From: a virus
Taxonomy: Duplodnaviria; Heunggongvirae; Uroviricota; Caudoviricetes
Strand: one strand, 5' to 3'
Length of the DNA stretch: 64,000 nt
Virus record (IMG/VR): IMGVR_UViG_2886837984_000001
Span: 1-64,000 of that record
Below the pieces are notes generated by a model that searched no databases, was not told the origin of the DNA, and was given only the letters and a program-made list of their open reading frames with translations. Of this stretch, positions 13,897 through 32,622 are shown one piece after another. Each line of letters starts with the position of its first letter. Within the stretch, counting starts at the first letter, position 1. The position numbers were made by a program, and so were the translations under genes.

Positions 13897-13931
13897 GGGG
13901 TTGACACGAAATCAAAAAATATGGATAATAA
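13897..13931 (+). promoter_or_regulatory. Sigma-A-like promoter: TTGACA, a 17-nt spacer, then GATAAT. It lies upstream of the recombinase gene.
   Basis: GGTTGACACGAAATCAAAAAATATGGATAATAA. The spacer carries the recurring AAATCAAAAA box. Confidence 0.45.
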
Positions 13932-13968
13932 AGTTATCAACAACTAAGCATAAGGGAGCGGATCGACA

Positions 13969-14988
13969 ATGGAAGCCATCAAAACAGTAGCGTTGAACAC
14001 GACAAACATTCAGAGCAATATCCGATTGTTCTTAGATAAGAAGGGGCTCAACTCCGATCAGACACGACGGGCATATGAGCGAGATATCGAGGAGTTCTTC
14101 ATCTTCTCGAAGAACAAGGCTGTCTCCGGTCTATTGGAGTCAGACGTATCGTTCTCGCCGCAAGACGTCGACAAATATCTCGTCCATCTGTCGGAGAAAG
14201 GGACTGCCTCGTCCACGATCAATCGTAAAGTCGTCTCTGTACGCTCTCTGATGCGCTACCTTGACCGCTTGGACGGATATGACATCAACTTATCGGCGTT
14301 CGATACCGGCTCTGTGAAGGGCGCTCAGAACTCGTATGGGGTGCTCACGTATGAAGAGACGGAGATGATGGCGAGCCGTGTCCTGTCTCACCGTAACGGT
14401 CAGATGAAGGCCGCCCTCATTCGTTTGGCCGTGGTGACGAGTTTCCGCTTGGATTCGCTCTTGCGATTGACGAAGACGGACTTTATGAATCAGCGAGGCG
14501 TGTGGACGGTGACAACGGTGGGGAAGGGCGGAGAACGTGATACGAAGGCTATCCGTGACGAGTTGTACGAAGAGATCCGCATGATCATGATGTTTAAAGA
14601 GGACGATGAGCCGATCTTCAAATTGTCTCCTGGGACTGCGTTGAACATGGTTAAGGGTCTGTCTGAGGAGATGGGGGTTCCGAAAGAGCGCAATATCACG
14701 TTCCACTCGCTGAAGAAGGCCGGTGTGACAGAGGTGTGGGTGCAGACGGGGTACGACGCTATGAAGACGAAGAAACAGGGGGCGCACAAGAACTTCTCTA
14801 CGACAGAGCGGTACATCGAGAACAACGAAGACTTCTCGCAGTCACAGAGCCTCTTGATCGGAAAAGAGATTGACTTGTCTATGTTGGACGGGCTGTCTAA
14901 AGACGAACTGCTCGAGTTCATCAACGGCATGAACCGCAGCGTGAAGATGCAGATCAAAAATGAGATCAAGAAAAAAGGGATGGCGTAA
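13969..14988 (+). CDS. Tyrosine recombinase or integrase, XerD/phage-integrase family.
   Basis: N-terminal core-binding region TRRAYERDIEEF. Candidate catalytic R in VVTSFRLDSL. HSLKKAGVT. The C-terminal motif is GAHKNFSTTERY. Confidence 0.75.
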   Translation: MEAIKTVALNTTNIQSNIRLFLDKKGLNSDQTRRAYERDIEEFFIFSKNKAVSGLLESDVSFSPQDVDKYLVHLSEKGTASSTINRKVVSVRSLMRYLDRLDGYDINLSAFDTGSVKGAQNSYGVLTYEETEMMASRVLSHRNGQMKAALIRLAVVTSFRLDSLLRLTKTDFMNQRGVWTVTTVGKGGERDTKAIRDELYEEIRMIMMFKEDDEPIFKLSPGTALNMVKGLSEEMGVPKERNITFHSLKKAGVTEVWVQTGYDAMKTKKQGAHKNFSTTERYIENNEDFSQSQSLLIGKEIDLSMLDGLSKDELLEFINGMNRSVKMQIKNEIKKKGMA

Positions 14989-16961: not shown

Positions 16962-17495
16962 TTGAGAGTAGCGTTGATCGGTAAGATGAGAAGCGGGAAG
17001 TCTACCATCGCAGATCTGTTAGAGGAGTATTTGGGATATCAGAAGTTGTCATTCGGAACTCGTCTGAAGCAGTTCGCTCATGAGGTATTCGATGTGGATA
17101 GCGATGTGAAGCCACGAAAGCTGTATCAGGATTTCGGTCAGAAGGCTCGAGAGATCGATCCAGACGTTTGGGTGAAATGGGTCGAGCGAGATATGGGAGA
17201 CAATCAGTTGGTTGTCATCGATGATCTTAGGCAGCCGAATGAGTATGAGTGGGCGAAACGAAACGGGTTCATCTTGTTTCATGTGAGATGTTCCGACGAG
17301 GTTCGGTTGATGAGAATGAAGAGCAAGGGTGAGGATGTCGATCCGAAGCTTTTGAATCACGAAACAGAACGACATATTGATGAATATACATATGATTACA
17401 TATTAGACGGCGAGGTATCACCGCTAGAAAGCTACCAGGCGATCAAGTGGCTAGAAGCATACGGCGATAGTTTGAGCGGTTTGAATTCTAAATAA
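16962..17495 (+). CDS. P-loop nucleotide or nucleoside-monophosphate kinase-like protein.
   Basis: TTG start with AGGAGTGAAGGGT upstream. Walker A GKMRSGKST. LVVIDDLRQPNE resembles Walker B. Confidence 0.6.
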   Translation: MRVALIGKMRSGKSTIADLLEEYLGYQKLSFGTRLKQFAHEVFDVDSDVKPRKLYQDFGQKAREIDPDVWVKWVERDMGDNQLVVIDDLRQPNEYEWAKRNGFILFHVRCSDEVRLMRMKSKGEDVDPKLLNHETERHIDEYTYDYILDGEVSPLESYQAIKWLEAYGDSLSGLNSK

Positions 17496-17516
17496 AAAAG
17501 TAAAGGATGATTAAAG

Positions 17517-17792
17517 ATGGCTTATCCAAAAGACGAACAAGAAACGGTGATCGTATATGAGGCAGAGACGGGGTTGTGGAGTTTCTACTCGACTCACCCG
17601 CCTCATATTCGTAAGTATAAGGAACTTTTGGTCGACGCGACGATGACTGAGGATCAATACGGTATCAACTCGATCCGAGGGAGAATCGAAGATGCGAATG
17701 TACGAATCTCTAAGAAGCGTGTCATGTCAGAGGAGCAACGTGCAGCCTTAGCAGAACGTATGCGTAAGATGCGAGAAGCGCAGAACACGTAA
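17517..17792 (+). CDS. Hypothetical protein.
   Basis: 91-aa ORF with an AAAGGATG RBS. Confidence 0.55.
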   Translation: MAYPKDEQETVIVYEAETGLWSFYSTHPPHIRKYKELLVDATMTEDQYGINSIRGRIEDANVRISKKRVMSEEQRAALAERMRKMREAQNT

Positions 17793-18137
17793 GAATCGAT
17801 TCTGAGAGCCACAGCGTAGAGAGTTATCAGGAGAAAACGATGTCACTAGTTTTGGATATACCTAGGTATTCGGAAAACGTTGGCTCTCAGAAACGCTTTG
17901 GATTGACAGGAAAAAACGACTATGTTGAAAATCGTTCAGCTTAGTGGGTCTTAGAGGGTTTTGACGCCGAGACCCCATCAATACTCGTGGCGTATATCCA
18001 TAAATCGATTCTAAGCGTCAGAGCGCCTGTACGTGTGTACGTTAAACGACCTCATGGGGTTGAGTAAGGGTTAGGTATTAGTCTGGATCAGGTGTTCTTA
18101 AAACGCTGTACGAAAACACAAGAAAAGGGTGAGAAAG

Positions 18138-18287
18138 ATGATGATGATTTTTGCTGGAACTGTTGTGATCGGACTGTTTGTTGGATTGGGGTTCTACCTC
18201 GGCCACAGTACGGGTTTCTATGACGGCTACGAACTTGGGTATCGGGATGGCAATCTCGGGTATCCACGAAAGCTTGGTGAAAAGTGA
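18138..18287 (+). CDS. Small membrane peptide, 49 aa.
   Basis: Strong RBS AAAAGGGTGAGAAAG. Hydrophobic MMMIFAGTVVIGLFVGLGFYLG. Confidence 0.4.
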   Translation: MMMIFAGTVVIGLFVGLGFYLGHSTGFYDGYELGYRDGNLGYPRKLGEK

Positions 18288-18388
18288 TGCACTTATTCGT
18301 AACGGGTGTATTGGCAATATTGGTGATTGGAATCGTGGTATACGGGTTCGAAAAACTACTTACATACAAAGGACGGGATGAAGAATGA
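18287..18388 (+). CDS. Small membrane peptide, 33 aa.
   Basis: Its ATG overlaps the preceding stop and its own stop overlaps the next ATG. The sequence MHLFVTGVLAILVIGIVVYGF is hydrophobic. Confidence 0.3.
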   Translation: MHLFVTGVLAILVIGIVVYGFEKLLTYKGRDEE

Positions 18389-19221
18389 ATAAGGGATTAG
18401 CAATCGTAGGTGGAGCAGTATTGGTATTGGGCTTAGTGGCAACACCATTCGTCGTCGAAAAGATCGAACCAGGTCATGTGGGTGTACATTACAAACCGTC
18501 TAACGGCGTTCAGAAAGAGGTCTTCCAACCAGGATGGGAGGTTGTCGCTCCTTTTGACAAGGTAATCGAGTATCCGACACGTACACAGACGAAATCAATC
18601 AAGGATTTAGTGTTGAGTACAAAAGACGGTAAGAACGTCACAGTCGACTTCTCTTACTCGTTCTCGGTGAACCCTGAAAAGGTCGTCGACTTGTTTAACA
18701 AGTATGGAGCTGTATCGGTGGATGATATCGCAACGAAAGGATATCTTCGTCAACAGTTGTTCGACGCAGCGCGCGATCAGGTTAGCAAGGTGACAGTTCT
18801 TGAGTTGTTCGGAGAGCAGTCATCGCAAGTTTCTTCTGACATTCAGGCACAATTTGCCGACAAGGTGTTAGAACTTGGATTCATCGTCGAAGACTTGTCA
18901 TTGGGTGCTCCGAAGCCAGATGAGAAAACACAAGAGGCGATTGATGCGCGAGTGAAAGCGAGCCAGGAGTTAGACCGTAAGAAGACGGAGCTCGAAATCG
19001 CGAAGGCCGAATCGGAGCGAATCCTCGTAGAATCCGACGCTAAAGCGAAAAAGACCGTGATTGAAGCCGAAGCTGAAGCGAAGGCCAACAAGTTGCTCTC
19101 GAACTCGATCACACCTGAGCTCATCAAACTTAAAGAAGCTGAGGCGCGTCAGAAGCATGGTTGGGTCGAGATTCAAGGTGTCGCTCCGACGTTGACTCAA
19201 GAAGTAGAGAGTAAAAAGTGA
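18385..19221 (+). CDS. SPFH/Band-7 domain protein, prohibitin or HflK-like.
   Basis: N-terminal TM helix, an SPFH-like core, and a coiled-coil tail rich in A, E and K. Confidence 0.75.
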   Translation: MNKGLAIVGGAVLVLGLVATPFVVEKIEPGHVGVHYKPSNGVQKEVFQPGWEVVAPFDKVIEYPTRTQTKSIKDLVLSTKDGKNVTVDFSYSFSVNPEKVVDLFNKYGAVSVDDIATKGYLRQQLFDAARDQVSKVTVLELFGEQSSQVSSDIQAQFADKVLELGFIVEDLSLGAPKPDEKTQEAIDARVKASQELDRKKTELEIAKAESERILVESDAKAKKTVIEAEAEAKANKLLSNSITPELIKLKEAEARQKHGWVEIQGVAPTLTQEVESKK

Positions 19222-19625
19222 TGATCGACCTGTGGGAAGATTTCAAGCTTCACAATCAGTATGAATTTGACGAGAATACAAGGTTTCAACTCGAAGACCT
19301 CCGCGACGGCTATGACGGCTTGTTGCGGTTGGTCGATCGGGCTGAGTTTAACGAAGAAGAGATGTTGATGAAGCTTGACGCGAAGAACCATGCGATTGAG
19401 CAACGTAAACTCGAGCATGACTTCGTTTACCTGGCTGCATTGGTTCATTTTGATGAACCGGAGATGTTTTTTCTTCTGACGAGCGGCCTACATCCCAAGA
19501 TTGCTCTTGAATGTGCGATCGCTCGGTGTAAGTGGATGAAGAATCATCCTGAGACGTTCGATCTGTTTGGTGCGTTTGCGAATCGGTTTGACTATGAGAT
19601 GAATGCGAAGGGGTTGATGGAGTGA
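19218..19625 (+). CDS. Hypothetical protein.
   Basis: ORF with start-stop overlap in the operon. Confidence 0.55.
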   Translation: MMIDLWEDFKLHNQYEFDENTRFQLEDLRDGYDGLLRLVDRAEFNEEEMLMKLDAKNHAIEQRKLEHDFVYLAALVHFDEPEMFFLLTSGLHPKIALECAIARCKWMKNHPETFDLFGAFANRFDYEMNAKGLME

Positions 19626-19909
19626 TGAGAAAAGTGACGATGAATTCCATGTTGAAAGATTATGAATCGGTGCAAGAGGAAGTGGAATACAATTTCTTGA
19701 TTGTTTTCGTTTCGGTAGATGGTGCAAAGCCTGAAATGATCGTAAACCCGCGCGAAAACGTGGATGCGAAGATGGTGTATTACCGCTCGGCCTACGACAA
19801 CGACTTACGTCTGAAGGCGAACCCTAAGATTCAGATTGTGGATTATCAGTTTTCCGAAGGTGACATTTCGCTTAATGCACATTATCGAATTGGAGTTGGG
19901 GAGTTATGA
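19622..19909 (+). CDS. Hypothetical protein.
   Basis: Coupled ORF. Confidence 0.55.
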   Translation: MMRKVTMNSMLKDYESVQEEVEYNFLIVFVSVDGAKPEMIVNPRENVDAKMVYYRSAYDNDLRLKANPKIQIVDYQFSEGDISLNAHYRIGVGEL

Positions 19910-20226
19910 TGACAACCAAAGATAAGCTAAAATCATTGATTTTGATGCTAAATGAGGCGAAAACAGGTAAAATTGAGGTGTATCAGGCAGATTTAGCGCT
20001 TTTCGAGGGATTGATTGAAGATTTAGAAGAGAGAATTCGGCTCGAAAATGAGTCTTCTGACGAAGATTTGTGGTTCGTTTACCTGACTGGTGGCGAGGTG
20101 CAAGGTTTACATAGCTTACTGATGACACGACCGCTCGGACATATGGATAATTTGCGGAAGCAGGTTGAGAAGGCGTATGACACGATCAAGACGCATGATG
20201 ATGCAGAGACGGTAGGTGGGCGCTGA
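19906..20226 (+). CDS. Hypothetical protein.
   Basis: Coupled ORF. Confidence 0.55.
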   Translation: MMTTKDKLKSLILMLNEAKTGKIEVYQADLALFEGLIEDLEERIRLENESSDEDLWFVYLTGGEVQGLHSLLMTRPLGHMDNLRKQVEKAYDTIKTHDDAETVGGR

Positions 20227-20717
20227 TGATGTGGTTAGCATTGTTGGTGGCATATGCGACGGGATTGACGGTGTATGCCGTATTCCTTTACTTAGACCTG
20301 GATGTTGTGACTGCTAGACTCGAGTCGAAACAAGAGAGATATGAGGAAGTTTTGGATGAGTTGTCGGAGTCCCGCTCCACTCTCCGAGACCTACAGGAAG
20401 AGTTGTATATCGCTCAGGCAGACTTAGAAGAAGCGAAAGAGGGAATCGGGGTATGGAAAGATCGGTATCTAGAGGCCGTCAATGCACATAGTTTGTTGGC
20501 AGACGAGCGAGAACAGTCCATCGGAGACCGTCATGACCTGGTGATTCTAGGAGATGACGATGTGTTTGTGGCTTACTATCACGGAGAGTTGGTGGTCGGT
20601 CAGAAGCGAATGAGCTTCAATGGATACGAGGATGATACATATCGGTTTGAAGTGACATTCGGGAACACCAAGGATGAAGGGAATGTGATTTACTTTGACG
20701 GTGGCGAGTATGAATAA
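20226..20717 (+). CDS. Hypothetical membrane-anchored protein.
   Basis: N-terminal TM segment and a coiled-coil region. Confidence 0.55.
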   Translation: MMWLALLVAYATGLTVYAVFLYLDLDVVTARLESKQERYEEVLDELSESRSTLRDLQEELYIAQADLEEAKEGIGVWKDRYLEAVNAHSLLADEREQSIGDRHDLVILGDDDVFVAYYHGELVVGQKRMSFNGYEDDTYRFEVTFGNTKDEGNVIYFDGGEYE

Positions 20718-21020
20718 TAGTTGGTTTCATATGAAACAAAACAGAGATTTAGCGAAAGACGCTTGACAATCGAAATCAAAAAGTATATATTGTAATTAAG
20801 AGGTAGCGGAAACTACCTAAAAATTCATATGAGAATATGAATGATGTACTAGTATCGTACATACGTTTCGTTTTTCATGAGACGACCGCTCACTCGTTGC
20901 CATCGATAGCGGTCTGATCATATGCCTCCCTAGAGGGGTGAAGAGAGGTGTGATTCCTTTCGGGCATACCATACATACCGGATGTTTTTGTGACATTCAT
21001 GATTTACCTCCTCCTTTCGG

Positions 21021-21057
21021 AAAGACCGTCTCCCTTACAGGACGGTCTTTTTGTTTG
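21021..21057 (+). terminator. Rho-independent terminator.
   Basis: AGACCGTC tcccttacag GACGGTCT followed by TTTTTGTTT. Confidence 0.6.
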
Positions 21058-21148
21058 GATAAAAACACACCCCCCTCTCTAGATTAAATGAAAAAGTATT
21101 TTAATATTGGGAGATATAGGGTATGATAAGAGGGAGGAGGAGATGAAG

Positions 21149-21595
21149 ATGTTTTTGATGTATCTGATCGGGTTGGTGTTCTTCGGGGGATTCTTGCTGC
21201 TGATGGTAGGGTCTTTTGCTAATTATATGGATTATAAACAGGAGAGCGAGATGGGTGCGAGGTTGGGTGACACTTTGAACGGCCGTCCACCGGAGAGAGC
21301 GAAGCCTGTCGTGAAGGATTGGGTTCAGGGGTTGCGTAAGCTAGGGATTGAGATTGCGGATGTGGAGACGTATGAGAGTGAGTTGCGGAGGGATCTGAGA
21401 GAGTTGATGAATGTGACGCTGCCTGAGATCGCGAAGATGGATATCGGTTTGGAGATGAAGGTTGAATATGGGGGAGTGATCAGGAGGGAAGTTGATGCTG
21501 TGATCGAGAGAGCGAAGCGAGAGAAGACAGACCGAGTAAAATCAGAGATTGACTATTTGGTGGGATATGGGTTGGGTGAGAAGGCTAAAAAATGA
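21149..21595 (+). CDS. Hypothetical membrane protein.
   Basis: RBS GAGGGAGGAGGAG. The start is probably the ATG at 21149, which is spaced better than the earlier ATGs. It has an N-terminal TM helix. Confidence 0.55.
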   Translation: MFLMYLIGLVFFGGFLLLMVGSFANYMDYKQESEMGARLGDTLNGRPPERAKPVVKDWVQGLRKLGIEIADVETYESELRRDLRELMNVTLPEIAKMDIGLEMKVEYGGVIRREVDAVIERAKREKTDRVKSEIDYLVGYGLGEKAKK

Positions 21596-22030
21596 ATGAT
21601 TTCTCTGACAGGGTAAGGGAAAAGTGAGGTTTTGGGACTCCGAGAGGGGTTCTTTTTTGTGCGTGTATTTAGGAGTCTAAAAAAGTGAGTGAGGATAAGG
21701 GAAAATGAGGGTTTTAAGAGGGATGAAATGAGGAGAGATTTTTTGATGAGTTTTTTAAAGGGGCGAAAAAGTGAGTAAGGGTAAGGGAAATTAAACGATT
21801 TGACGATAACGGATTTTGAGGGAGAAAAGTAAGGCAGGGTAAGGGATTTTATATGATTTAAACGATCTGAAAATAGGGGCAAATGGTATAGTGTGGGGTT
21901 GGGGTTTGTGAGGGGGTTTGGGTATCGAATCGGAAAAAGGAGATATATGGATTTTGATATCGCTATAGGGGGAGGGGAGAAATGAAATTTGATATATGAG
22001 GGAAAAAGATGAGGTGTGGATTTGTAACTA
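21596..22030 (+). repeat. Strand-biased degenerate tandem repeat tract, purine-rich and almost C-free on the plus strand. It carries GGGTAAGGGA and AAAGTGAG units and a G4-like run.
   Basis: GGGTAAGGGA occurs three times and AAAAGTGAG(G/T) three times. GATTTTGAGGG is a further unit. GGGGTTGGGGTTTGTGAGGGGGTTTGGG has four G-tracts. The overlapping minus-strand ORF is a translation artefact. Confidence 0.5.
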
Positions 22031-22287
22031 CTATCGGCCTATCCGAAGGATAGGACGAATGGGTGGATCTTTACTGTCCCCACCGTATTGTTGATAATGG
22101 ATATTATCCACAATTTGAGATTGGACGGATTTTGACGTTTTTTGACTTGGGGCGACTTGGACGATGATGTCGCCACCACGCTCGGACGCTCACGTCTTCG
22201 GACAAAAGAAAAAACGCCACCGCTCGATGGCAATGGCGCTTGTCTATATATGGGCGCTCTAGCGTCCGTTGGGAATTGGTATAACAT

Positions 22288-22503
22288 TCAGACGTTAACC
22301 GAATAGTCAACCTCGTTAACGTAACCCTCGTCGTCGTACTCGACCCACGCCGTCAAGTGTGCTTCTCCCACATCCTCCATCTCATTGACGTACACGCCCA
22401 ACGTGTGCACCTCGTTGCCTTCGGCGTTCCAATCCTCGTTTAGCTTGATTGCCTCTTTAATAGTAAGTCCTTCATTGGCGAGCATTTGTTTGAGTTTGTT
22501 CAT
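22288..22503 (-). CDS. Hypothetical small acidic protein.
   Basis: RBS CAAGGAGGAAAAC. 71 aa. Confidence 0.6.
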   Translation of the reverse strand: MNKLKQMLANEGLTIKEAIKLNEDWNAEGNEVHTLGVYVNEMEDVGEAHLTAWVEYDDEGYVNEVDYSVNV

Positions 22504-22672
22504 TTTTGTTTTCCTCCTTGTTTGTTGTACCCTTATTATCTCATCTGTCGAGATCTTTCCGCACTTTATTTTTATTTTTTTTATTTAATTAAAAAAGAGA
22601 AGAAAATAAATTTCTCCTCTCTCTTATATATGACATAGTTATAAACATACGTTCAAAATCCGTTTAACAGAT

Positions 22673-22969
22673 TTAGTATAATTGAACCCTGCTAAATTCT
22701 GGCGCGCTCTCGCTGGCCGTGTGAGATCTTACGAGCTCGTTCCCCGTAACCTCATACACATACAAACCGCCTTCTTCTTCGTCTTCTCCGTACTCGACAA
22801 ACGCGACACGCTGGCCTTTAGTGTCCACATAATACAAGTTCGTCCATAGTGTCCGGCCGCTCTCCGCGTCCTCAACGCGTACAATTACATCATGAATATC
22901 TTGACCGCCAAACAATGCAGCAGCTTCGCCAGCTTCGAGCTTTACAGTTACGTTAGTAAGATCTTTCAT
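22673..22969 (-). CDS. Hypothetical protein.
   Basis: The start is probably the ATG at 22969, which has CTAGGAGGCG upstream. The ORF track extends 12 codons further. Confidence 0.55.
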   Translation of the reverse strand: MKDLTNVTVKLEAGEAAALFGGQDIHDVIVRVEDAESGRTLWTNLYYVDTKGQRVAFVEYGEDEEEGGLYVYEVTGNELVRSHTASESAPEFSRVQLY

Positions 22970-22998
22970 GTTAACGCCTCCTAGTGTATGTTTAGTGT

Positions 22999-23391
22999 TT
23001 ACCATGTATGGCCGGTTTTGAGGTTTTTAATTATCATATGGTCGCTATCTTCCTTATTAACCTCAACTTTATATTGGCCTTCCTTTTCCCAAACAGCGTC
23101 ATACGTTTTAACCGCGTACGTTGTGTACTCTTCATCTTCCGATACGTATTCAATGGCCGTAGCATACTCTTCATTAAATTCTGTCGTATATTCTTCTTCA
23201 ATCGCTGCCACAACTTCGGCCGCCTGGACTTCTACAAATTCGCGTTCTTCTTTACTAAAAGATCTTGCAACGTATCCGAATGTATACAAGCCTTCTTTGC
23301 TGCCCGACACGACTTCTAGCGTCATGCGCTCCTTAATTGTAACGTTTACTTGTTGGCCGATTGCGTTCATGATTGTGTTCATCTTGTTCAC
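22999..23391 (-). CDS. Hypothetical acidic protein.
   Basis: 130-aa ORF, E- and Y-rich. Confidence 0.55.
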   Translation of the reverse strand: MNKMNTIMNAIGQQVNVTIKERMTLEVVSGSKEGLYTFGYVARSFSKEEREFVEVQAAEVVAAIEEEYTTEFNEEYATAIEYVSEDEEYTTYAVKTYDAVWEKEGQYKVEVNKEDSDHMIIKNLKTGHTW

Positions 23392-23676
23392 CGTTCCTTT
23401 TCGTTTTGTTGTTTTGCTTACTCTTATTTTCTCATGTCGTGAAGATCTGACACGTTTTTAATTTATTTTTTTATGATCTACTCATTCTTAAAAAATCATA
23501 ATTATCTCTACTCTTATATTAAGTATATATATAAAGACTTGCTCAAAATCCGTTTAACAGGAATCCATATAACTAAAACGACATAATTCCCGGCTCGTGA
23601 TCGTAAACATATTTCTTAACTCGATCACTCGATCAACTGTCTTCAATCAAAAAAAGAGTCTTTCGACTCTTTGCAA

Positions 23677-24426
23677 TCATTCTCCTTCAAACCCTTCCAG
23701 CTCCGTATAAACGCCATAACTTATTACATCGTTAACCTGTATAATATTGTTTTTGTAATCGCCTTGTGTTGACTCTGTTAGACTCATGCAAGGTACATCA
23801 AACATTTCTGTATCATGAGGGTAAATATAAAGATCTTGAACGTGTACATAGGTTTCTTTACTCGTCTCTTTAATGCTGGCGTGTTCTCCGTATTCGTTAA
23901 ACTTTCCGATATGGTTATATTTATCTTTAATTTCGAGCTCGGCCACATTTCGCACTCTGTCGGTCGAACCTTTAGATCTTACGCCATCTTCTAGATATCC
24001 GTATCCTTCTAAAATCCCTTTGTACTTAATACGGTCATACATCATGACGACATGGCCACCCTGTCTTACAAAATAGTACACCTCATAACGATTATTGTAT
24101 TCGCCATGCTTCGAATACGCGTTTTCTGATACATCGATTAGTGCTGTGTTTTGGTCGTCTAAAATGATTTTGCCGCTCTCAACTTCCTTTTTAAATTCCT
24201 CAACCGTTTTTACAATCGCTTTACCTGGCGCTTTCCAGTATGTGCGCGAGCAGCCTAATGTATTTTTAAAAGGATTGTTTGGCCGTTCGTTCGGTTCGTC
24301 AACGCGTACAACTAAACTATATTCGTTCCTTGTTTCATCCAAAACAATAAACTTGTTTACATTTTTGGCCGTTTCCACCTGGTGCAATACAGTTACATTT
24401 AATTCGTTTTCGATTAGATTTTTCAT
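23677..24426 (-). CDS. Hypothetical protein.
   Basis: 249-aa ORF. Confidence 0.6.
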   Translation of the reverse strand: MKNLIENELNVTVLHQVETAKNVNKFIVLDETRNEYSLVVRVDEPNERPNNPFKNTLGCSRTYWKAPGKAIVKTVEEFKKEVESGKIILDDQNTALIDVSENAYSKHGEYNNRYEVYYFVRQGGHVVMMYDRIKYKGILEGYGYLEDGVRSKGSTDRVRNVAELEIKDKYNHIGKFNEYGEHASIKETSKETYVHVQDLYIYPHDTEMFDVPCMSLTESTQGDYKNNIIQVNDVISYGVYTELEGFEGE

Positions 24427-24680
24427 TTTGATTAGCTCCCTTTTTGATTTGGGTTATCTTGCTTAATTACATTATCGCACGTTTATATATTTAATTTTAT
24501 ATTATATTTTTTTATTTTAATAGCATTGATCGTAAACATTATTAAAAATTTAAATCATCTCGCTATAAAGTAATAGTATTAAACGTTTCTTCAATATCCG
24601 TTTAACAGATTTAGTATAACTAAAACTTGATAATTTTTGAACGTGATCACTCAACAAAAAAAGAATCCTTTCGGATTCTC

Positions 24681-24899
24681 TTATCTTTCGTAACACGTAT
24701 GAATTTCATTTCTTGCAATGCCGATCAAATAATATTTTCCGTCAACCGTTTCAACGTCATATATTTTTTCTTTGTCTGATCCGTTTATATAGTCTTCATA
24801 ACTAAATTTATAGTTTGCGACTTTTAACCCTTCTGATTCTAAAACCCGTTGAACGTTCATCATCTTACGTCCGCTTTTGGCGCTCTCGCGTCCTCGCAT
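24681..24899 (-). CDS. Hypothetical small protein.
   Basis: ORF that overlaps the upstream gene end. The start is uncertain. Confidence 0.35.
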   Translation of the reverse strand: MRGRESAKSGRKMMNVQRVLESEGLKVANYKFSYEDYINGSDKEKIYDVETVDGKYYLIGIARNEIHTCYER

Positions 24900-25252
24900 A
24901 GCTTCATAAACAACGCGGCCTCTCTATCCAGCTTTTCGCGTTCCTCGCGCTCTCTCACGCTTTCGAAAACATAACCTTCAAACGTGTATGCCTTGTGATC
25001 TTTCTTAATCTCATAAGTACCATGTGATCCGTACATATCACAATTTACTTTTTCAATTAGCGTGATATTTTCAAACACGCTTAGATTGATGATAGCAGCG
25101 TACTGTAGTGCTTGCTCTGGCGTGTCTGCCTCAACTTCGTTAAACCTTTGCCCGTGATCTTTGCGCTCGCTTTCCCATGTATACATACCCGTTTCAGGAT
25201 CAAACAATAAATCATATTCTACAACAAACCCTTTAACAATAAATTTACTCAT
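24860..25252 (-). CDS. Hypothetical protein.
   Basis: The start is probably the ATG at 25252, which has AAGAGGAGG upstream. A palindromic operator promoter lies immediately upstream. Confidence 0.55.
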   Translation of the reverse strand: MSKFIVKGFVVEYDLLFDPETGMYTWESERKDHGQRFNEVEADTPEQALQYAAIINLSVFENITLIEKVNCDMYGSHGTYEIKKDHKAYTFEGYVFESVREREEREKLDREAALFMKLCEDARAPKADVR

Positions 25253-25288
25253 ATCAATAACCTCCTCTTTTGATACTCTTAGTATACC

Positions 25289-25309
25289 ATGCGTACAATG
25301 TACGCGCAA
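25289..25309 (-). promoter_or_regulatory. Promoter with an embedded 15-bp inverted repeat GCGTACA-A-TGTACGC. On the minus strand it reads TTGCGC, 17 nt, then TATACT.
   Basis: It is one of four near-identical boxes. See also 31364, 31939 and 32623. Confidence 0.5.
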
Positions 25310-25397
25310 TACTTTTTTAATTAGCTATCATATTTATTTTACGATCACATAGGCCGATCACATAAAAAAAGCACTCAACCCGTCAACGGTCAAGCGC

Positions 25398-25967
25398 TCA
25401 ACTTATCTTAATAAATTTTTTAATATCCTCGTCAATCACATAAACCGCATAAACCTTTTTGCCATGCTCGATCAACTTTACTTTAAACAATGGAATTGCT
25501 TTACCTTGTATCAATCCCGTATACATATCATATTCATTCAAGATGTGATTGCGATAATACTTTACATTGTTTGTCTTGCATATCCATTTAATCACGGTCT
25601 CTTTGTCGCTATCATAGCAGCGTATATAATTATACGTATATTTTGGTAGATTAACATTAACAATGTAGCTCTTACTCTCATTATGCAGGTTTACAGGTGA
25701 TCCCGTACACGTCAACCGATCTCCATCACTTTCTAGCGCTCTCACATGGCCTTTTTGGATCTCCGCAACGGCCGGCACTATATCATACTTTGTTACCATG
25801 TTAGCGGGTAAACATCGCGCGAGCTCGGGATAGATGTTACACGCTATATAAAATAACTCGTCTAACGTCTCTTGATCTTGTTTGTCTAACCATCTGTTAT
25901 AAGTTTGCAAGTAATAGCAATCCTCATCTTTTAGTTTAAAATTGTTAACGTCTCTCATCGTATACAT
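25398..25967 (-). CDS. Hypothetical protein.
   Basis: 189-aa ORF. Confidence 0.6.
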   Translation of the reverse strand: MYTMRDVNNFKLKDEDCYYLQTYNRWLDKQDQETLDELFYIACNIYPELARCLPANMVTKYDIVPAVAEIQKGHVRALESDGDRLTCTGSPVNLHNESKSYIVNVNLPKYTYNYIRCYDSDKETVIKWICKTNNVKYYRNHILNEYDMYTGLIQGKAIPLFKVKLIEHGKKVYAVYVIDEDIKKFIKIS

Positions 25968-25985
25968 ACATTCAAACCCTTTCTT

Positions 25986-26552
25986 TCAAGCCGTTACGAG
26001 CTCTTTATTTTTATTCAACTTCTTTTCAAGTTCCTCAACCGTTGGCAATTCTTCAAACATCTCTATTGCCTTATCCATGCTTAAACGCTTTACAGGTACA
26101 CCGTTTTCGAGCTTATACATATGAATCGAATCGCTTTGTCGTGTGCGGTTTGTTGCTTTAGCAGCGCTTTCGAGACGGCCGAACATATCGCGCTTCTCTT
26201 TGTGATCGTAACGGATTTGTGCCATATAGTAATCAAACATGGTACGTTGATTGACACTTTTTTTATAAAAGTAATCTACACCACTATTGCGTATAAATAC
26301 AATACCGTCCTTGTGATTGCCTAACATTTCGGCCGCTGTATGGATATAAAAATCATTTTCATATCTTGCATTTTTACCCTTTACCTTTTCAGTGAGCTCG
26401 GGAAACAATTCTGTTACGGCCTTTTTGATTGTCTTTTTAAGTCGATCAACCTTGTTTTCAATAACTCTTCTTTCTTCATTGTATACATTGTGTTTTCTCA
26501 TATCTAATTCTTGATAGCGAGCGATTTGTTTCAAAAGTGTCATTGTTTTCAT
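25986..26552 (-). CDS. Hypothetical protein.
   Basis: 188-aa ORF. Confidence 0.6.
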   Translation of the reverse strand: MKTMTLLKQIARYQELDMRKHNVYNEERRVIENKVDRLKKTIKKAVTELFPELTEKVKGKNARYENDFYIHTAAEMLGNHKDGIVFIRNSGVDYFYKKSVNQRTMFDYYMAQIRYDHKEKRDMFGRLESAAKATNRTRQSDSIHMYKLENGVPVKRLSMDKAIEMFEELPTVEELEKKLNKNKELVTA

Positions 26553-26606
26553 TTTGATTTCTCCCTTTTTGATTATGATTTTTTAATTTATTAGCAGCTT
26601 ACAACG

Positions 26607-27017
26607 TCATCTAAACCATGATTTATTAATTTCTTCGTAACGCTCTTTTGTGATTGCCTGGCACGTCTCAACGTATTCTTTTTTAACTTCGTTGTGGCCG
26701 TCCAAAACATTGAAGATTAATAACGTGCCATTGTCGTAAACGTCTACTAGCTTAAACGTGTCGAGCGGTGCGTTTTCGCGTCCGTCTTGTGGATCGTAGT
26801 AATAAATACCTTTAGCAGTTGCGTTTGTTACCATGTATAAACGGTGGCTTGCTTCGTCTTCGTCTTTAAATCCATCTTCAAACAATTCGCAATCGTTACA
26901 TAAACACCATTCGTCACCGCTATCCAACCATACAATTTCAACCTCTTCATTTTGTTCTTCTAGATTATTTAAAATTGTGTTCCATTGTGTAAGACTGATT
27001 CTTTTTGCAGTTTCCAT
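26607..27017 (-). CDS. Hypothetical protein.
   Basis: 136-aa ORF. Confidence 0.6.
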   Translation of the reverse strand: METAKRISLTQWNTILNNLEEQNEEVEIVWLDSGDEWCLCNDCELFEDGFKDEDEASHRLYMVTNATAKGIYYYDPQDGRENAPLDTFKLVDVYDNGTLLIFNVLDGHNEVKKEYVETCQAITKERYEEINKSWFR

Positions 27018-27104
27018 GTGTAGCAGCTCCCTTGTTTTTGAGTGTTAAAATAATTGTTTTAACGGATAAATTGCTTTTAAAATCCCTTACAGGGTAATGA
27101 TTTT

Positions 27105-27377
27105 TTAAACAGTCATTTCGAGCCGTGATAATTCTTGATAGACTTCATCAAACTTCTGATCACTATCCGTCAAAATTAGTTCATGCTCGCTTTGCCATAC
27201 GTTGATATATTTATCGAGCATAATAATATAGTTTGGTGTTTGGCCGTCTACCTGCAATGCCTTGTTGTTATAAATGATATAGCTATCATTCAACGTCCCT
27301 TCAAAAACTTCCATATCCAATTGTTTTTCGCTTGCAAGTTCCAAAATTTTTCTTGATTCGTCCGCTGTTAGTCTCAT
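27105..27377 (-). CDS. Hypothetical protein.
   Basis: 90-aa ORF. Confidence 0.5.
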   Translation of the reverse strand: MRLTADESRKILELASEKQLDMEVFEGTLNDSYIIYNNKALQVDGQTPNYIIMLDKYINVWQSEHELILTDSDQKFDEVYQELSRLEMTV

Positions 27378-27436
27378 TTTTAATCATTCCTTTTCTGTTT
27401 TTTGATTTCAGTACATGGCCGATTTATCGGCCTGGA

Positions 27437-27919
27437 TTAATTGTTTTCACCGTCTTGTGTAAAATAAATCATATTTTCTAAATCCTCGCGAATCAAAATA
27501 ATTTCCTCATATGATCCACCGTCATCAATGTAATGGCCGTTATAAATTTTTTCTAATGCAGCTTGTAATTCTTTTTCCGTGTGATTTTCTACGTTTGTTG
27601 TGTATTCATAATAAAAATGATTAAAGTAACGGCCTAGCCCGTAAACTTCTTCATATTCATATTTAAAACCGTTGATTTCGTCCGAAAACTCAACTTTTAA
27701 TTCTTTATCAGCCTCGTTTAAATGGCCTTGTAAATTTTCAAGCGTGATCTTTTTGTGCGCTTGCTGGCGCTTGTTAAAAATATGATCATCTGCCTTGTTT
27801 TCGTCCCCGTTAAAAAAGATTCTCGCGAAATCATATTGACCGATTTGTTTGTACATCTTATCCAGCTCCCTTTGTTTGATGTGATTATTATACAGTTTGT
27901 AAGGCCGTTGACGCTTCAC
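27437..27919 (-). CDS. Hypothetical protein.
   Basis: 160-aa ORF. Confidence 0.55.
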   Translation of the reverse strand: MKRQRPYKLYNNHIKQRELDKMYKQIGQYDFARIFFNGDENKADDHIFNKRQQAHKKITLENLQGHLNEADKELKVEFSDEINGFKYEYEEVYGLGRYFNHFYYEYTTNVENHTEKELQAALEKIYNGHYIDDGGSYEEIILIREDLENMIYFTQDGENN

Positions 27920-28496
27920 TTTTTTGTACTAGCTTATAATCATATGGATTAAAACCGTGTTCTCGAATATACTCGCCTAACAACTTACGATTAACAAAAC
28001 TCAAACGACTTATTTCTTTTACTTCGTCCCACTGTTTAGCGATTGATAATTTTTCATCGTTCGATAAATTAGGATACATTTTATTGATTTTTTCAGTGGC
28101 GTATTTATTTAGCCGCTCGATTTCGCTCTTGTTTTCCGTCATTTCTTTAAAGTCCTCGATTGCAGCTGGCGACACTTCGCGATCACGTTTAAAGCCTTCG
28201 TATTTTCTTACTGACTTGTAACGGTCATCGGCTGGACGTAACGTGTAATAAGTTGTCGTTGCATATTTGTTTAAAATCGTTTCGTTTTGTTCGATGTGAT
28301 TAAGTGTCGGTACAACAAAACAAAATTCTTTTTTATTTCGTCCATAATATACGGCTGTTACTTCATCAACTTTGTTAGACACAAGGATAACGCTTGCTCT
28401 TTGTGTTTCGTGCATATCGTAAGGATATAAAGCATATTCTTTAGACGTTTCTTTAATTTTTGCTTTTTTAAACTCTGTAAATGTCATTCTTCTCAT
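27888..28496 (-). CDS. Hypothetical protein.
   Basis: The start is probably the ATG at 28496, which has AAAGGATGA upstream. Confidence 0.55.
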   Translation of the reverse strand: MRRMTFTEFKKAKIKETSKEYALYPYDMHETQRASVILVSNKVDEVTAVYYGRNKKEFCFVVPTLNHIEQNETILNKYATTTYYTLRPADDRYKSVRKYEGFKRDREVSPAAIEDFKEMTENKSEIERLNKYATEKINKMYPNLSNDEKLSIAKQWDEVKEISRLSFVNRKLLGEYIREHGFNPYDYKLVQKSEASTALQTV

Positions 28497-28527
28497 TTTA
28501 ATCATCCTTTTCGTTTTGATTTTTTGT

Positions 28528-29058
28528 TTAAAACTTTTCGAGCGATCCATGCGCGTTAAAACCCATCATAGTTAAGTGAGCATATTCTAAAACTTTTTCA
28601 TCGTTCCGGGATTCTTCAAAAATGTTATTTAGATGACTTTTAACCGCGAAACGAACCGCCTTTTGAATATCGCTTTCGAGCTCGTTGTAAGTCGTTCCGC
28701 TCTTTTTGGCAAAGTAAGCAGCTAGATAGTGATCTCCGAACGTGTCCCACGCTATTAAGCACTTAAAATCATCTTCTTTGTTGCGATTAATCGTATCGAC
28801 TAGATCGTTTTTATCTTCGTTGTCGAGACGGCTAAAATAATACGTATCTAAAACGATATGCGGTTGGTAACATGGTTTAACGTCATACTGTAAGATGTCC
28901 GTTTTAAAGGTTTTACAAAACGCTTTAATCGCTCGCTCAACGTCCCAACCCTGCCGATCGTTTAGGTGTTTTAAATACTTGTCTCTCGCTTGATTGATTG
29001 CACGTTTTCTAAAACGTCCGTGTAGCTCGTCAATTTCATACAGTGTAATCTGTCTCAT
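28528..29058 (-). CDS. Hypothetical protein.
   Basis: 176-aa ORF. Its ATG overlaps the stop of the upstream small ORF. Confidence 0.6.
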   Translation of the reverse strand: MRQITLYEIDELHGRFRKRAINQARDKYLKHLNDRQGWDVERAIKAFCKTFKTDILQYDVKPCYQPHIVLDTYYFSRLDNEDKNDLVDTINRNKEDDFKCLIAWDTFGDHYLAAYFAKKSGTTYNELESDIQKAVRFAVKSHLNNIFEESRNDEKVLEYAHLTMMGFNAHGSLEKF

Positions 29059-29225
29059 TTTTTTAGATCCTCTTCGTCCAAAACGTAAGTTTCGATAAAA
29101 TATAAATCTTCGTCACACTCAAAACACTGATATGAATAATCCTCTAAATCACTTTTATATACTTGACTGTCACATCTACTGCACAAACGGTTGATACAAT
29201 CTTTTTCAATTACCTTTTCATCCAT
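29055..29225 (-). CDS. Small zinc-ribbon protein, 56 aa, with two CxxC pairs.
   Basis: RBS AAGGGAGCG. MDEKVIEKDCINRLCSRCDSQ...CFECDEDL. It is not in the ORF track. Confidence 0.45.
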   Translation of the reverse strand: MDEKVIEKDCINRLCSRCDSQVYKSDLEDYSYQCFECDEDLYFIETYVLDEEDLKK

Positions 29226-29261
29226 CTTTATTCGCTCCCTTTAAAATATTTATTTTAGCGG

Positions 29262-29528
29262 TCATTTTCTGAAACAATTACTTCTAAAAACATATCCGAT
29301 CAAAAGGCTTTTATCATTCCAGCAAGTTTGATATAAGACTTCTTTGTAAAATTCTGAAGCGTGAAACAATATCCCGTTTCGGCCGTGATACTGCAAGCGA
29401 TCCATAATAAACTTTTTAACGACTTTATCTGAATTGTAAGAAAGATTAGTGTTCTTGTTTTTTAGATCCGTATAGCCGTTAAAAATTTCATCGGCTACAC
29501 GGTCAATTTTTCTAGTTCTCATGTTCAC
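29262..29528 (-). CDS. Hypothetical protein.
   Basis: 88-aa ORF. Confidence 0.5.
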   Translation of the reverse strand: MNMRTRKIDRVADEIFNGYTDLKNKNTNLSYNSDKVVKKFIMDRLQYHGRNGILFHASEFYKEVLYQTCWNDKSLLIGYVFRSNCFRK

Positions 29529-29890
29529 ATATCCTTTCTTTTTGCTAACGTTTCTTTTAATTCGCTCGCTAGTTCCGGTTTGAAAAACTCAACGGCCTCT
29601 ATAAAGTAATGCAGCCGCGATTCATAATATTTAGCGTTTCCAATGTCTCCGTATTTTTCAAACGTCTCTTTAAACTGCATATAGCCGTTAAACTCTTCTT
29701 TAATTTGATCGTCCGTTAAAACGATTTCGCGTTCATAATTTTCCGCTGGCGCGTCGCTTTCATAGTCCCTAACACCGAAAGCCTTCCTAATGATTGCAAT
29801 TTGAGTCATAACTCTAATACTTTCTTCGCGAGACGTTAACGTTTTAAAATCAAGCTCTTTAACCTTGTTTAGTAATGTAACGTTGTTCAT
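29525..29890 (-). CDS. Hypothetical protein.
   Basis: 121-aa ORF, coupled to its neighbour. Confidence 0.55.
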   Translation of the reverse strand: MNNVTLLNKVKELDFKTLTSREESIRVMTQIAIIRKAFGVRDYESDAPAENYEREIVLTDDQIKEEFNGYMQFKETFEKYGDIGNAKYYESRLHYFIEAVEFFKPELASELKETLAKRKDM

Positions 29891-29908
29891 TTGTTTACCT
29901 TCTCTCTT

Positions 29909-30340
29909 TTAATACTCTTCTTCTAACACTGATTTAATAGCGAGCTCCAAACCCTTTTTAAGATTCGGCCGCTCGTTAACGCTTGTCATTGATAAGTCTA
30001 GCGCTTGCAACGTGTCGCTTAAATCGTAAGTATAACTGTATTCATGATTTCCTAGTTCATAGCGAAACATCTCTAAAATGAAACCCTCTCCGGTTTGATC
30101 GGATTCAATAGCTGCCTTTAATTCTTGTTCCTGTCGCTCGAACATATTATCAAAATCCATTAAGCTATCTTTTTTAATAAATCCTCCATTGCCAATATCC
30201 AAAACCATGTTAGTTTGATCTTTTTCAAGTTCTAACTTTTTCATACCTTCGTCAAACTGTTTGTTTGAAAATGCGAACATGATAGGAAAGTCATTTAATT
30301 GTTTTTGGTGTCTATCCTTCATTTGCTTATAAGCGTTCAT
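29909..30340 (-). CDS. Hypothetical protein.
   Basis: 143-aa ORF. Confidence 0.55.
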   Translation of the reverse strand: MNAYKQMKDRHQKQLNDFPIMFAFSNKQFDEGMKKLELEKDQTNMVLDIGNGGFIKKDSLMDFDNMFERQEQELKAAIESDQTGEGFILEMFRYELGNHEYSYTYDLSDTLQALDLSMTSVNERPNLKKGLELAIKSVLEEEY

Positions 30341-30366
30341 TTTTGAAACCTCCTATATTTTTTTAT

Positions 30367-31104: not shown

Positions 31105-31125
31105 TTTGGTTAGCTCCCTTATGAT

Positions 31126-31299
31126 TAGTATTTTTTGATTACAGTAACAGTGTTTTCGTTCCCGTTATATGACTCAATTTCAAGCGGCGAAACAATGATA
31201 CTTTTAAACGTATCGGCCGATGGTGCGATACTTACGTCAATCTTTCGGCCGTTGATCCATTCGCTATACTGTTCGCGGTTTGAAAAGTAAACTAGCATG
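31126..31299 (-). CDS. Hypothetical small protein, 57 aa.
   Basis: RBS AACGGAGGTAAAAC. It is not in the ORF track. Confidence 0.45.
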
Positions 31300-31363
31300 A
31301 TGTTTTACCTCCGTTAAAATGATGTTTTTACTTGCTGTTTCTTAACTACCTTTAGTTTAACAT

Positions 31364-31383: not shown

Positions 31384-31413
31384 ACTTTAAATAAAAGTTT
31401 TTATTTTTTTATT

Positions 31414-32580: not shown

Positions 32581-32622
32581 AATTGACGCCTCCTTGAGTG
32601 GTTTGTAACTAAATAGTAACAC

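Follow-up and report, generated by a model that had tools for sequence, protein, structure and literature searches.

The window analysed here, a 64,000-nucleotide (nt) stretch corresponding to positions 1 to 64,000 of IMG/VR record IMGVR_UViG_2886837984_000001, carries at 21596–22030 a cytosine-poor tract that belongs to a large, unclassified and previously undescribed phage-like element of Exiguobacterium. Comparison of related sequences settles that the tract is part of a conserved, non-coding element of several parts, with a fixed geometry and a strand-specific constraint on base composition, and identifies it as the core of a cis-acting control region of about 520 bp (21596–22114), or about 650 bp if counted up to the terminator of the leftward gene block. 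The tract is neither a gene nor a member of a known RNA family, nor does it represent a low-complexity run that arose by chance; it probably serves as a control site at the DNA level, perhaps as a replication origin. A first-pass annotation of the same letters had already picked it out, and that observation, real though in part misdescribed, is partly confirmed, as its interpretation is partly supported.

Conservation and base composition of the tract

At least six relatives of the tract were recovered, through homologues of the 150-amino-acid (aa) protein encoded directly upstream and through one DNA pattern scan: L002 (Logan), L003 and L013 (JGI), and L011, L012 and L016 (ENA, Logan). They derive from isolates and metagenomes and represent about four clades; the L003 tract is identical to those of L004–L009 (JGI), and the relatives' contigs end at scattered places. 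The tract is present and collinear in all of them, and the alignment from the stop codon of the 150-aa gene to about 22114 is nearly free of insertions and deletions (indels). Nucleotide identity to the window is 62–79% in the tract, on a par with the 62–80% of the 150-aa gene, and the tract has at most two indel columns per segment against 30 in the gene. Variable columns are spread evenly over the codon phases in the tract (51/51/54, 25/23/24 and 6/8/10), in contrast to the coding signature of the gene (82/61/127), and no open reading frame (ORF) in the tract is conserved across the relatives, since frame, start, stop and length all differ between clades. It follows from the even codon-phase variation and the lack of a conserved ORF that the tract is a non-coding element under selection. 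Absence from relatives and protein coding had been put forward as the findings that would count against a functional element; given a region found in every relative, inconsistent ORFs, even codon phases and a fixed geometry, neither objection holds, and the proposal of a functional non-coding element stands. Among the matches listed from pattern and protein scans of IMG/VR, only the unrelated SPFH-carrying phage L001 appeared besides chance matches, and L014, L015, L036 and L044 were set aside as chance pattern matches inside coding regions. No homologue was found in annotated collections.

On the strand opposite the tract, long ORFs occur because that G-poor strand lacks TAG and TGA stops; they measure 109 aa in the window (21553–21882, minus strand) and 73 and 30 aa in other relatives. 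The JGI call of a 162-aa gene at this place (L003 2608–3096, minus strand, and likewise in L004–L009) is spurious. With respect to RNA, the covariance models of Rfam 15 gave zero matches at gathering thresholds in the window and only chance-level matches in 21550–22320 (E 0.57–9), and a search for tRNA and tmRNA found none. The region folds no better than shuffles (z-scores −0.79, −0.84 and −1.35), and the covariation is confined to one nine-pair hairpin. Together with the lack of an Rfam hit, fold z-scores of −0.8 to −1.35 argue against the earlier suggestion that the tract is the template of a globally structured RNA.

The plus strand of the tract consists of 141 A, 22 C, 150 G and 122 T in 435 nt, which amounts to 5.1% C, 28% T, 67% purines and a GC skew of +0.74. 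The near-absence of C that first drew attention to it was correctly seen and is the lowest in the 64 kb, while the description as purine-only has to be given up. In fact, the seven C-poorest 200-nt windows of the 64 kb all lie within 21551–22050, and the extent of about 430 bp initially assigned was too narrow: the C-poor domain covers some 930 nt, from about 21100 to about 22030, and includes the 150-aa gene. C drops from 16–20% to 0–12% immediately after the terminator at 21021–21055. Within the 150-aa gene, C accounts for 11%, the GC skew is 0.55 and third codon positions contain 52% G and 10% C; elsewhere in the window, genes have 30–38% G at these positions and GC skews of at most 0.33. 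A third-position G content of 52% means that the constraint on composition extends to synonymous sites. The relatives share it, with 5–9% C and skews of 0.57–0.74 in their tracts and 8–11% C and skews of 0.53–0.64 in their upstream genes, and the spacers between the conserved blocks vary in sequence yet keep their C-free state in every relative. That variable spacers stay C-free implies a constraint on one strand, which duplex DNA-binding sites alone do not explain, and this points to a function at the level of RNA, R-loop or single strand. The composition can be read in two ways: either the plus-strand RNA or displaced strand must be G-rich and C-poor, or the antisense RNA must be C-rich and G-poor. 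As to the former, the 15 100-nt windows with the most G in the 64 kb are all found in 21100–22000, together with 10 out of 16 overlapping plus-strand G-cluster matches, and 21895–22030 contains 38% G and 4% C. As to the latter, the antisense RNA of 21100–22040 holds 52 of the 77 78-nt windows of its strand in which C/G is at least 4 (ratios 4–55), so that an untranslated, C-rich and G-poor stretch of at least about 80 nt, the composition of a Rho-utilisation (rut) zone, is indeed present. There is no 10–11 bp peak of the kind that A-tract phasing or DNA curvature would give.

Repeats, promoter-like elements and the best-conserved segment

Four copies of AGGGTAAGGGA (at most one mismatch) occur on the plus strand at 21610, 21692, 21778 and 21836 and none elsewhere in the 64 kb, against a chance expectation of 0.41 (0 of 100 shuffles reached four). 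Since AAAAGTGAG(T/G) also stands beside three of the four, the degenerate repeat units reported earlier are borne out. A repeat finder resolves them into four 36-nt units, each made up of AAAAG, seven variable nt, RGGRTRAGGGA and an A/T run, with starts at 21598, 21680, 21766 and 21824 and hence spacings of 82, 86 and 58 nt. All lie on the plus strand. R1 (21598–21633) has its AGGGTAAGGGA core at 21610–21620 and is located between the stop codon of the 150-aa gene and the terminator that follows; R2 (21680–21715) reads AAAAAGTGAGTG AGGATAAGGGA AAAATGAGGGTTTT, R3 (21766–21801) reads AAAAAGTGAGTA AGGGTAAGGGA AATTAAACGATTT, and R4 (21824–21859) reads GAAAAGTAAGGC AGGGTAAGGGA TTTTATATGATTT, with the centre of its core about 59 nt 5′ of the predicted start of transcription from the promoter-like element P1. 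The 82/86/58 start-to-start spacing is kept within 1 nt in seven of seven sequences. Identity in the 7-nt variable half is 0.63 within a genome versus 0.27 between orthologous copies of different clades, the lineages having their own versions (GTGAGT in the window, CTATAT in L003, CTCGTA in L011). Such concerted change would be expected for sites read by a co-evolving factor, and in their unique locus, fixed positions and concerted evolution the repeats behave like iterons; at least three direct repeats unique to the locus characterise an iteron origin, and four are found here.

Other interpretations of the repeats fared less well. Tandem Repeats Finder detected no array in the tract, and the tract has no second copy elsewhere in the window; a CRISPR array or type III antitoxin (ToxI-like) repeats were rejected on the grounds that there is no tandem array and that the 82/86/58 spacing is irregular. 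No further repeat copies occur upstream of other genes, so a promoter-family role for a phage sigma factor is unsupported. A single near-copy, TTGAGTAAGGGTTAGGTA, with three mismatches, is found at 18060–18077 in the 592-bp gap 5′ of the SPFH gene. In addition, 21698–21748, just after R2, resembles 21108–21160, where the 150-aa gene has its promoter, ribosome-binding site and start (local alignment score 34 versus 23 ± 2.7 in shuffles). This likeness may reflect an old partial duplication; the idea that the tract as a whole is a decayed duplicate of the 150-aa gene was dropped, there being no tblastn support and only this one borderline DNA similarity of 50 nt.

Beyond R4 and 40 bp of AT-rich, poorly conserved sequence lies P1, a rightward extended −10 promoter-like element on the plus strand (21884–21892, TGGTATAGT) without a convincing −35. 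P1 was read from the sequence, as the promoter scan gives no score to extended −10-only promoters; its TTTGGTATAG is nearly invariant in the seven sequences. With TGGTATAGT kept and no conserved ORF or codon-phase signal downstream, P1, whose activity is predicted, would fire into a non-coding stretch, and the G-rich, C-free sequence that follows (21895–22010) would place a G-rich transcript on a template rich in C. GGGGTTGGGGTTTGTGAGGGGGTTTGGG (21895–21922, plus strand), located where the P1 transcript is predicted to start, is a canonical G-quadruplex (G4) motif and the sole strict one (G3+N1-7 x4) on either strand of the 64 kb; the first-pass annotation was right that such a motif exists but had placed it at the end of the interval. 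It is followed by a Shine-Dalgarno-like block with an ATG (21934–21949, plus strand; AAAAAGGAGATATATG, or GGAAAAGGGTGATAnATGG in relatives) in invariant columns. P1 and a second promoter-like site, P2, point in the same direction about 185 nt apart, and the stretch between them has a fixed length and no conserved ORF.

The best-conserved part of the whole region, 22011–22114, in which 30–32% of columns are variable, lies mostly to the right of 21596–22030; 22011–22085 has 32% variable columns versus 60–70% elsewhere. It opens with the direct repeat DR-a (22011–22032, plus strand, GAGGTGTGGATTTGTAACTACT), the longest near-invariant block of the element, which is matched by DR-b (22061–22084, plus strand, GGGTGGATCTTTACTG) and a subsequent invariant C run, TCCCCACC; the likeness of the two was read from the sequence. 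Between them, at 22034–22058, is a hairpin or dyad, CGG-n-CTATCC GAA GGATAG-n-CCG, whose GAA loop is invariant. Both partners change in three of its nine pairs (CG/GC/AU, UA/CG and CG/AU), 96% of the cells are paired, and its covariation score was reached by 0 of 500 shuffles, with slid controls near zero. It also folds as single-stranded DNA, at −5.5 to −9.3 kcal/mol in four clades. As all pairs are Watson-Crick, an RNA hairpin, a DNA hairpin or a dyad for a drifting dimeric protein are each possible; the invariant loop favours a hairpin. A flanking helix proposed by RNAalifold shows no covariation and relies on invariant G–U pairs, so it could form in plus-strand RNA only.

P2 itself is a rightward sigma-70-type promoter-like site on the plus strand (22070–22098; TTTACT, 17 nt, GATAAT). 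In L003, the sole promoter-like hit is at the homologous position (TTTTCA-17-GATAAT), and a spacer of 16–18 nt can be read from the alignment in all relatives. Overlapping the −10 and start of P2 is a palindrome, ATTGTTGATAA-TGGATA-TTATCCACAAT (22087–22114), with an invariant core, TTGATAATGGATnTTATC, and an invariant inner 18 bp; its two 11-bp arms, 6-bp centre and inner ATAA/TTAT constitute a dif-like layout. One perfect DnaA-box 9-mer, TTATCCACA, is contained in it at 22104–22112. Farther right (22115–22250), conservation becomes patchy, with indels, and L002 diverges fully from the edge of the palindrome onward. Here the ACGGATTTTGACGTTTTTTGACTTGG block (22125–22150, plus strand) is kept in the L003 and L011 clades and absent in L002; it is one of three plus-strand copies of ACGGATTTTGA (at 21809, 21947 and 22125).

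What the region might do

The reading preferred here, with a probability of roughly 0.3, is a transcription-activated replication origin that also carries iterons. A phage-specific factor would bind the four direct repeats, whose recognition half is lineage-specific but alike within a genome and whose spacing is fixed; rightward P1 would then fire a non-coding, purine-rich and C-depleted transcript, and this G-rich RNA on its C-rich template could form an unusually stable RNA:DNA hybrid (R-loop) that opens the duplex or primes. On the displaced strand, the GAA-loop hairpin between the two direct repeats might serve as a loading or priming signal, and the palindrome over P2 might, as an operator, couple the site to phage regulation. 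An origin is favoured because it is the sole reading to use the features suggestive of DNA-protein binding (unique co-evolving repeats, strict spacing, palindrome) and the putative one-strand features (purine-rich P1 transcript, hairpin) together. Of course, the readings considered here are partly compatible, and not all are mutually exclusive.

Known origins offer partial parallels. In R-loop-primed origins, including ColE1 RNA II, T4 oriF/oriG and mitochondrial CSB II, a promoter is followed by a G-rich non-template strand, and the RNA stays on the C-rich template. The tract likewise has a promoter-like element followed by a G-rich non-template strand, with a cluster of G runs at the predicted transcript start in the window; unlike those origins, the position of that cluster is not conserved, G density is just under predictor thresholds and the Shine-Dalgarno-like block with its ATG suggests ribosome binding, and the hybrid is putative. 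Of the R-loop or G4 element first suggested, the R-loop part agrees with the strand composition, which is of the sort that an R-loop-prone transcript would need; a G4 core finds no backing, its position not being conserved in the more distant clades. Iteron-type origins (lambda ori, P1 oriR, theta plasmids) share with the tract the direct repeats unique to the locus, the lineage-specific recognition sequences that are alike within a genome and, in the window, a nearby DnaA-box 9-mer; the strong strand asymmetry is a feature of the tract only. Finally, c2-type lactococcal phages have a non-coding origin with a promoter on either side, both pointing the same way; replication requires the non-coding PE1 transcript, made from the first promoter, the length and sequence of which are both important (PMC7150918). 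Like this origin of the Ceduovirus group, the tract is a non-coding region of a few hundred bp in a Firmicute siphophage, situated between gene blocks and provided with two same-direction promoter-like sites. In contrast, the c2 origin occupies a divergent early/late junction with promoters that lead into early genes, while the tract is convergent, with P1 and P2 running into a terminator; moreover, fixed-spacing direct repeats and C-depletion do not form part of its description (PMC7150918), there is no sequence similarity, and the origin role of the tract is predicted.

Several observations weigh against an origin. None of the neighbouring ORFs has a family hit to Rep, DnaA, a helicase loader, an initiator or a DNA-binding protein (Pfam, PHROGs, PADLOC), and the replication genes are 12–20 kb away. 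The repeat spacing of 58–86 bp is far wider than the approximately 22 bp of classical iteron origins, and close packing, about two helical turns apart, is seen in none of the relatives. A perfect DnaA box is confined to the window and L013, the CACA half being variable in L002, L003, L011 and L016. The best 100-nt windows contain 35–39% G, just below the 40% that R-loop predictors require, and R2–R4 lie upstream of P1 yet are equally C-poor. The Shine-Dalgarno-like block and ATG, some 35–45 nt into the predicted P1 transcript, suggest ribosome binding, and a stabilised RNA would fit them better. In addition, the convergent junction at which the tract lies is a local maximum of cumulative GC skew, which by analogy with bacterial chromosomes would be terminus-like rather than origin-like. 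The original suggestion of an iteron-type origin therefore retains its fixed, concerted repeats but has against it their wide spacing and the lack of an adjacent initiator gene.

Those same features could conceivably belong to a stable, Rho-resistant non-coding RNA locus, an alternative that deserves serious if tentative consideration. A long purine-rich RNA would be made from P1, perhaps with upstream read-through as well; C-depletion would leave this untranslated RNA with no place for Rho to load, the Shine-Dalgarno-like block would stabilise the 5′ end by binding ribosomes, as "STAB-SD" elements do in Bacillus, and the repeats would be operator or activator sites of P1 or protein-binding motifs on the RNA. 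Such a locus would account for a strand-specific composition that is kept even in variable spacers, for the conservation of P1 and of the Shine-Dalgarno-like block and ATG without the ORF behind them, for the covarying hairpin and its predicted flanking helix, and for the bidirectional terminator downstream; R1, being on the mRNA just 5′ of a terminator, is also where an RNA-binding factor could act. It sits poorly with the lack of an Rfam match at gathering or E-value thresholds, with folding no better than shuffles and with an alignment that has hardly any indels in 500 nt, which an unstructured RNA would not usually show; covariation is limited to a single all-Watson-Crick hairpin that could equally be a DNA dyad, and no target can be named. 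A sponge sequestering CsrA/RsmA was rejected, as GGA (22 seen versus 25.4 expected) and GGAT (9 versus 7.7) are not enriched. Alternatively, selection may act on the antisense strand, such that leftward read-through past the terminator at 22212–22241 enters an untranslated, C-rich and G-poor rut zone of about 930 nt, in which Rho loading would shield the rightward operon from antisense transcription. The C-rich antisense windows described above, with ratios up to 55, the extent of the biased domain from the 21021–21055 terminator to about 180 nt short of 22212–22241 with a coding gene included, and the strong early-type promoters that face the convergent junction all agree with such a collision buffer. 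It is nonetheless quite unlikely: for it composition alone would suffice, leaving the invariant blocks, concerted repeats, spacing, rightward promoters, hairpin and palindrome unexplained, a strong intrinsic terminator already precedes the zone, and Rho has a limited role in Bacillales.

A site for recombination, partition or packaging is also unlikely, if slightly less so. In this scheme, the palindrome at 22087–22114 would be the core site of an Xer-like recombinase, for multimer resolution or integration, and the repeats arm-type accessory sites; otherwise, the repeat array could be a centromere, or a terminase or injection-stop site at the boundary of a terminal repeat. Xer sites such as dif, cer and psi have a palindromic core with inner ATAA/TTAT, a 6-bp centre and spacing-sensitive accessory sequence, and the 11-6-11 palindrome, with the same inner letters, has the layout of dif- and cer-type sites, with the repeats within a few hundred bp before it. 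Two Xer-like recombinase genes are present, the spacing and concerted change of the repeats would fit arm-type or accessory sites, and the palindrome's right edge is the very point at which homology between the window and L002 stops. One further GATAA-N3-8-TTATC, and no more, occurs in the window (13924–13938). It covers the −10 and start of the promoter that serves one of these recombinase genes (gene at 13969), where TTGACA-17-GATAAT (13921–13945) is overlapped by the palindrome TGGATAA-TAAAG-TTATCAA, with arms similar to those of the tract palindrome and conservation in L002 at 2458–2482. This second palindrome has a spacer of 5 rather than 6 nt, however, and a pair of such palindromes is statistically ordinary (27 of 100 shuffles), so that the link between palindrome and recombinase is a lead, not a result. 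Furthermore, the right arm (TTATCCACA, TTATCAACA or TTATCAATA) does not match the XerD-arm consensus, TTATGTWAA, and the outer arms are off the XerC/XerD consensus in general; the recombinase genes are 7 and 13 kb away, and the repeats are 250–480 bp from the core, which is far for attP. A separate contig of about 121–123 kb in two datasets may mean a plasmid-like prophage, compatible with recombination or partition, but ParA/ParB was not found in the window. Packaging finds a parallel in the T5 iss region, a conserved, untranslated, 1.6-kb repeat region with eight paired DnaA boxes that lies inside the terminal repeat of a 122-kb siphophage, by the fast-evolving pre-early genes (10.1101/866236). 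The tract is similarly untranslated, with direct repeats, palindromes and DnaA-box-like 9-mers, and lies beside some 10 kb of fast-evolving small early genes in a siphophage of about 120 kb; unlike T5 iss, it has one non-conserved DnaA box, and the two share no sequence similarity. The large terminase gene (493–1908) is about 20 kb away, so that the pac site suggested earlier lacks the usual place next to or inside the terminase genes and is not supported, and none of these schemes explains the strand-specific C-depletion of the spacers and upstream gene.

Two narrower explanations carry little weight. A G4 at 21895–21922, folding in DNA or RNA as the functional core, would have in its favour that the motif is the only strict one and sits exactly at the predicted start of the P1 transcript, but at that position it is found in L002 only with an 8-nt loop and is absent in L003, L011, L013 and L016; relaxed motifs are scattered at differing places in each relative, as G-richness alone predicts, and a strict motif arises in 6% of composition-matched tract shuffles, all of which makes this very improbable. 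Least credible is one or more small protein genes, such as a 32-aa frame at 21995–22093 or an ORF starting at 21947. The Shine-Dalgarno-like block with its ATG is conserved, and several relatives have an open frame from GAG GTG TGG to the palindrome, but the ORFs range from 2 to 52 codons, with starts and stops that shift between clades: from the ATG of that block they run for 12 codons in the window and L002, 34 in L003 and 48 in L011 and L013, and for about 2 (L012) and 6 (L016) codons as read from the aligned sequences. The codon phases vary evenly (6/8/10 and 25/23/24), and one block of 21 nt shows no change even in third positions, although the more distant relatives share just 52–59% identity in the neighbouring protein.

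Genomic setting and wider meaning

The window is phage-like, encoding a large terminase subunit, an SbcD-like exonuclease, PhoH, a sigma factor, a RecD/Dda-like helicase, two tyrosine recombinases, a deoxynucleoside monophosphate (dNMP) kinase, an SPFH protein, a DnaB-like helicase, a primase, a RecJ-like exonuclease and a Sak4-like protein. Its closest annotated relatives are Bacillus siphophages of about 160 kb, with a protein identity of only about 31%, and DNA searches of phage and plasmid collections gave zero match to it. The 150-aa protein is 100% identical to a hypothetical protein on a 121-kb contig of Exiguobacterium sp. SH5S4, and a 123-kb Logan contig has a 76%-identical homologue in the same gene order.

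Genes at 16962–21595 read rightward and those at 22039–33816 leftward, and the tract lies where the two blocks converge. Position 22503, initially taken for the start of the leftward block, is the start codon of its last gene, so the tract is past the downstream end of that block and beyond its terminator. This strong intrinsic terminator (22212–22241, minus strand), a 12-pair stem and T run, forms the right boundary of the non-coding region. Nor does the terminator at 21021 flank the tract, as had been supposed: the 150-aa gene (21143–21595, plus strand) intervenes, and the rightward operon has its own intrinsic terminator at 21634–21659 (plus strand; GGGACTCC-GAGA-GGGGTTCT and TTTTTT). The inverted repeat at 21021–21055 (plus strand; AAAGACCGTC / GACGGTCTTT and a T run) is an intrinsic terminator that marks the left edge of the C-poor domain. 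Terminators homologous to all three were located in L003 and L011, with differing stem sequences in the case of 21634–21659.

The 150-aa protein, always encoded directly upstream of the tract, has an N-terminal membrane helix and is represented in 10 homologous clusters with 47 invariant columns. No match to it turned up in Pfam, PADLOC or PDB, and PHROGs offered only a weak hit (E 8.8e-4) in a family whose function is unknown; the structure model is all-helical at low confidence, with a predicted local distance difference test (pLDDT) score of 60. A DNA anchor like phi29 p16.7 was considered and set aside on account of that score and the lack of a PDB or family match. Upstream of its gene, a second conserved stretch without a clear gene (20718–21142), which aligns to L003 1900–2165, holds a possible 59-aa ORF on the minus strand (20817–20996) in addition to the 21021–21055 terminator; in JGI and ENA, the neighbouring protein has been drawn out to 224 aa across this stretch (P0004, P0007), which is too long.

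The leftward block is composed of small genes that lack family hits and have a promoter and a terminator each, and it looks like an early or host-takeover module. ACGGATTTTGA of the tract is also the core of an early-promoter element, CTGTTAAACGGATTTTGA, on five early-type promoters of this block (minus strand). Five minus-strand copies of CTGTTAWACGGWTTTTG (22653–22670, 23543–23560, 24591–24608, 32341–32358 and 32686–32703) occupy its intergenic gaps; each ends in a −35-like TTGNAC, with a −10-like hexamer 17–18 nt downstream, and the element is also present in L003–L008. Together they resemble a family of early promoters that share an upstream site, and their core is ACGGATTTTGA, of which the tract has its three plus-strand copies. 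Three 45-nt repeats (31358–31402, 31933–31977 and 32617–32661), in 1.6 kb devoid of long ORFs close to the divergent junction at about 33.9 kb, contain the operator-like palindrome AAGCGTACAnnGTACGCAAG. The Xer-like tyrosine recombinases (13969–14988 and 35367–36431) are divergent, scoring far under NCBIfam cut-offs, and the gene for the second comes after a DndB/DGQHR-like gene (34144–35370). Residues 3–113 and 137–463 of the terminase ORF (493–1908) match separate PHROG families, and this large terminase could be unusual or mosaic.

Repeat-rich, non-coding control or origin regions of phages are well known as a general kind. What is unusual here is the depletion of C on one strand over 930 nt and into synonymous sites, combined with wide, rigidly spaced and co-evolving repeats. 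It is conceivable, though doubtful, that the C-depleted domain of gene and tract represents a new kind of phage element acting at the single-strand level, either a Rho-proof, C-free RNA with four lineage-specific protein-binding repeats or an R-loop origin presenting a GAA-loop hairpin on its displaced strand, with strand selection reaching synonymous sites.

For large Bacillales phages outside the model systems, there are no mapped origins, packaging sites or regulatory RNAs, and the locus offers a compact, testable cis element with four co-evolving repeats, two promoter-like sites, a covarying hairpin and an operator-like palindrome. At a practical level, the G-poor opposite strand yields spurious long ORFs that public metagenome annotations already list as genes. 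A conserved loss of C from one strand, spanning spacers as well as synonymous sites for some 930 nt, is a rare constraint. If it does reflect R-loop priming, escape from Rho, or recruitment of Rho on the other strand, base composition would itself be a signal in phage genomes.

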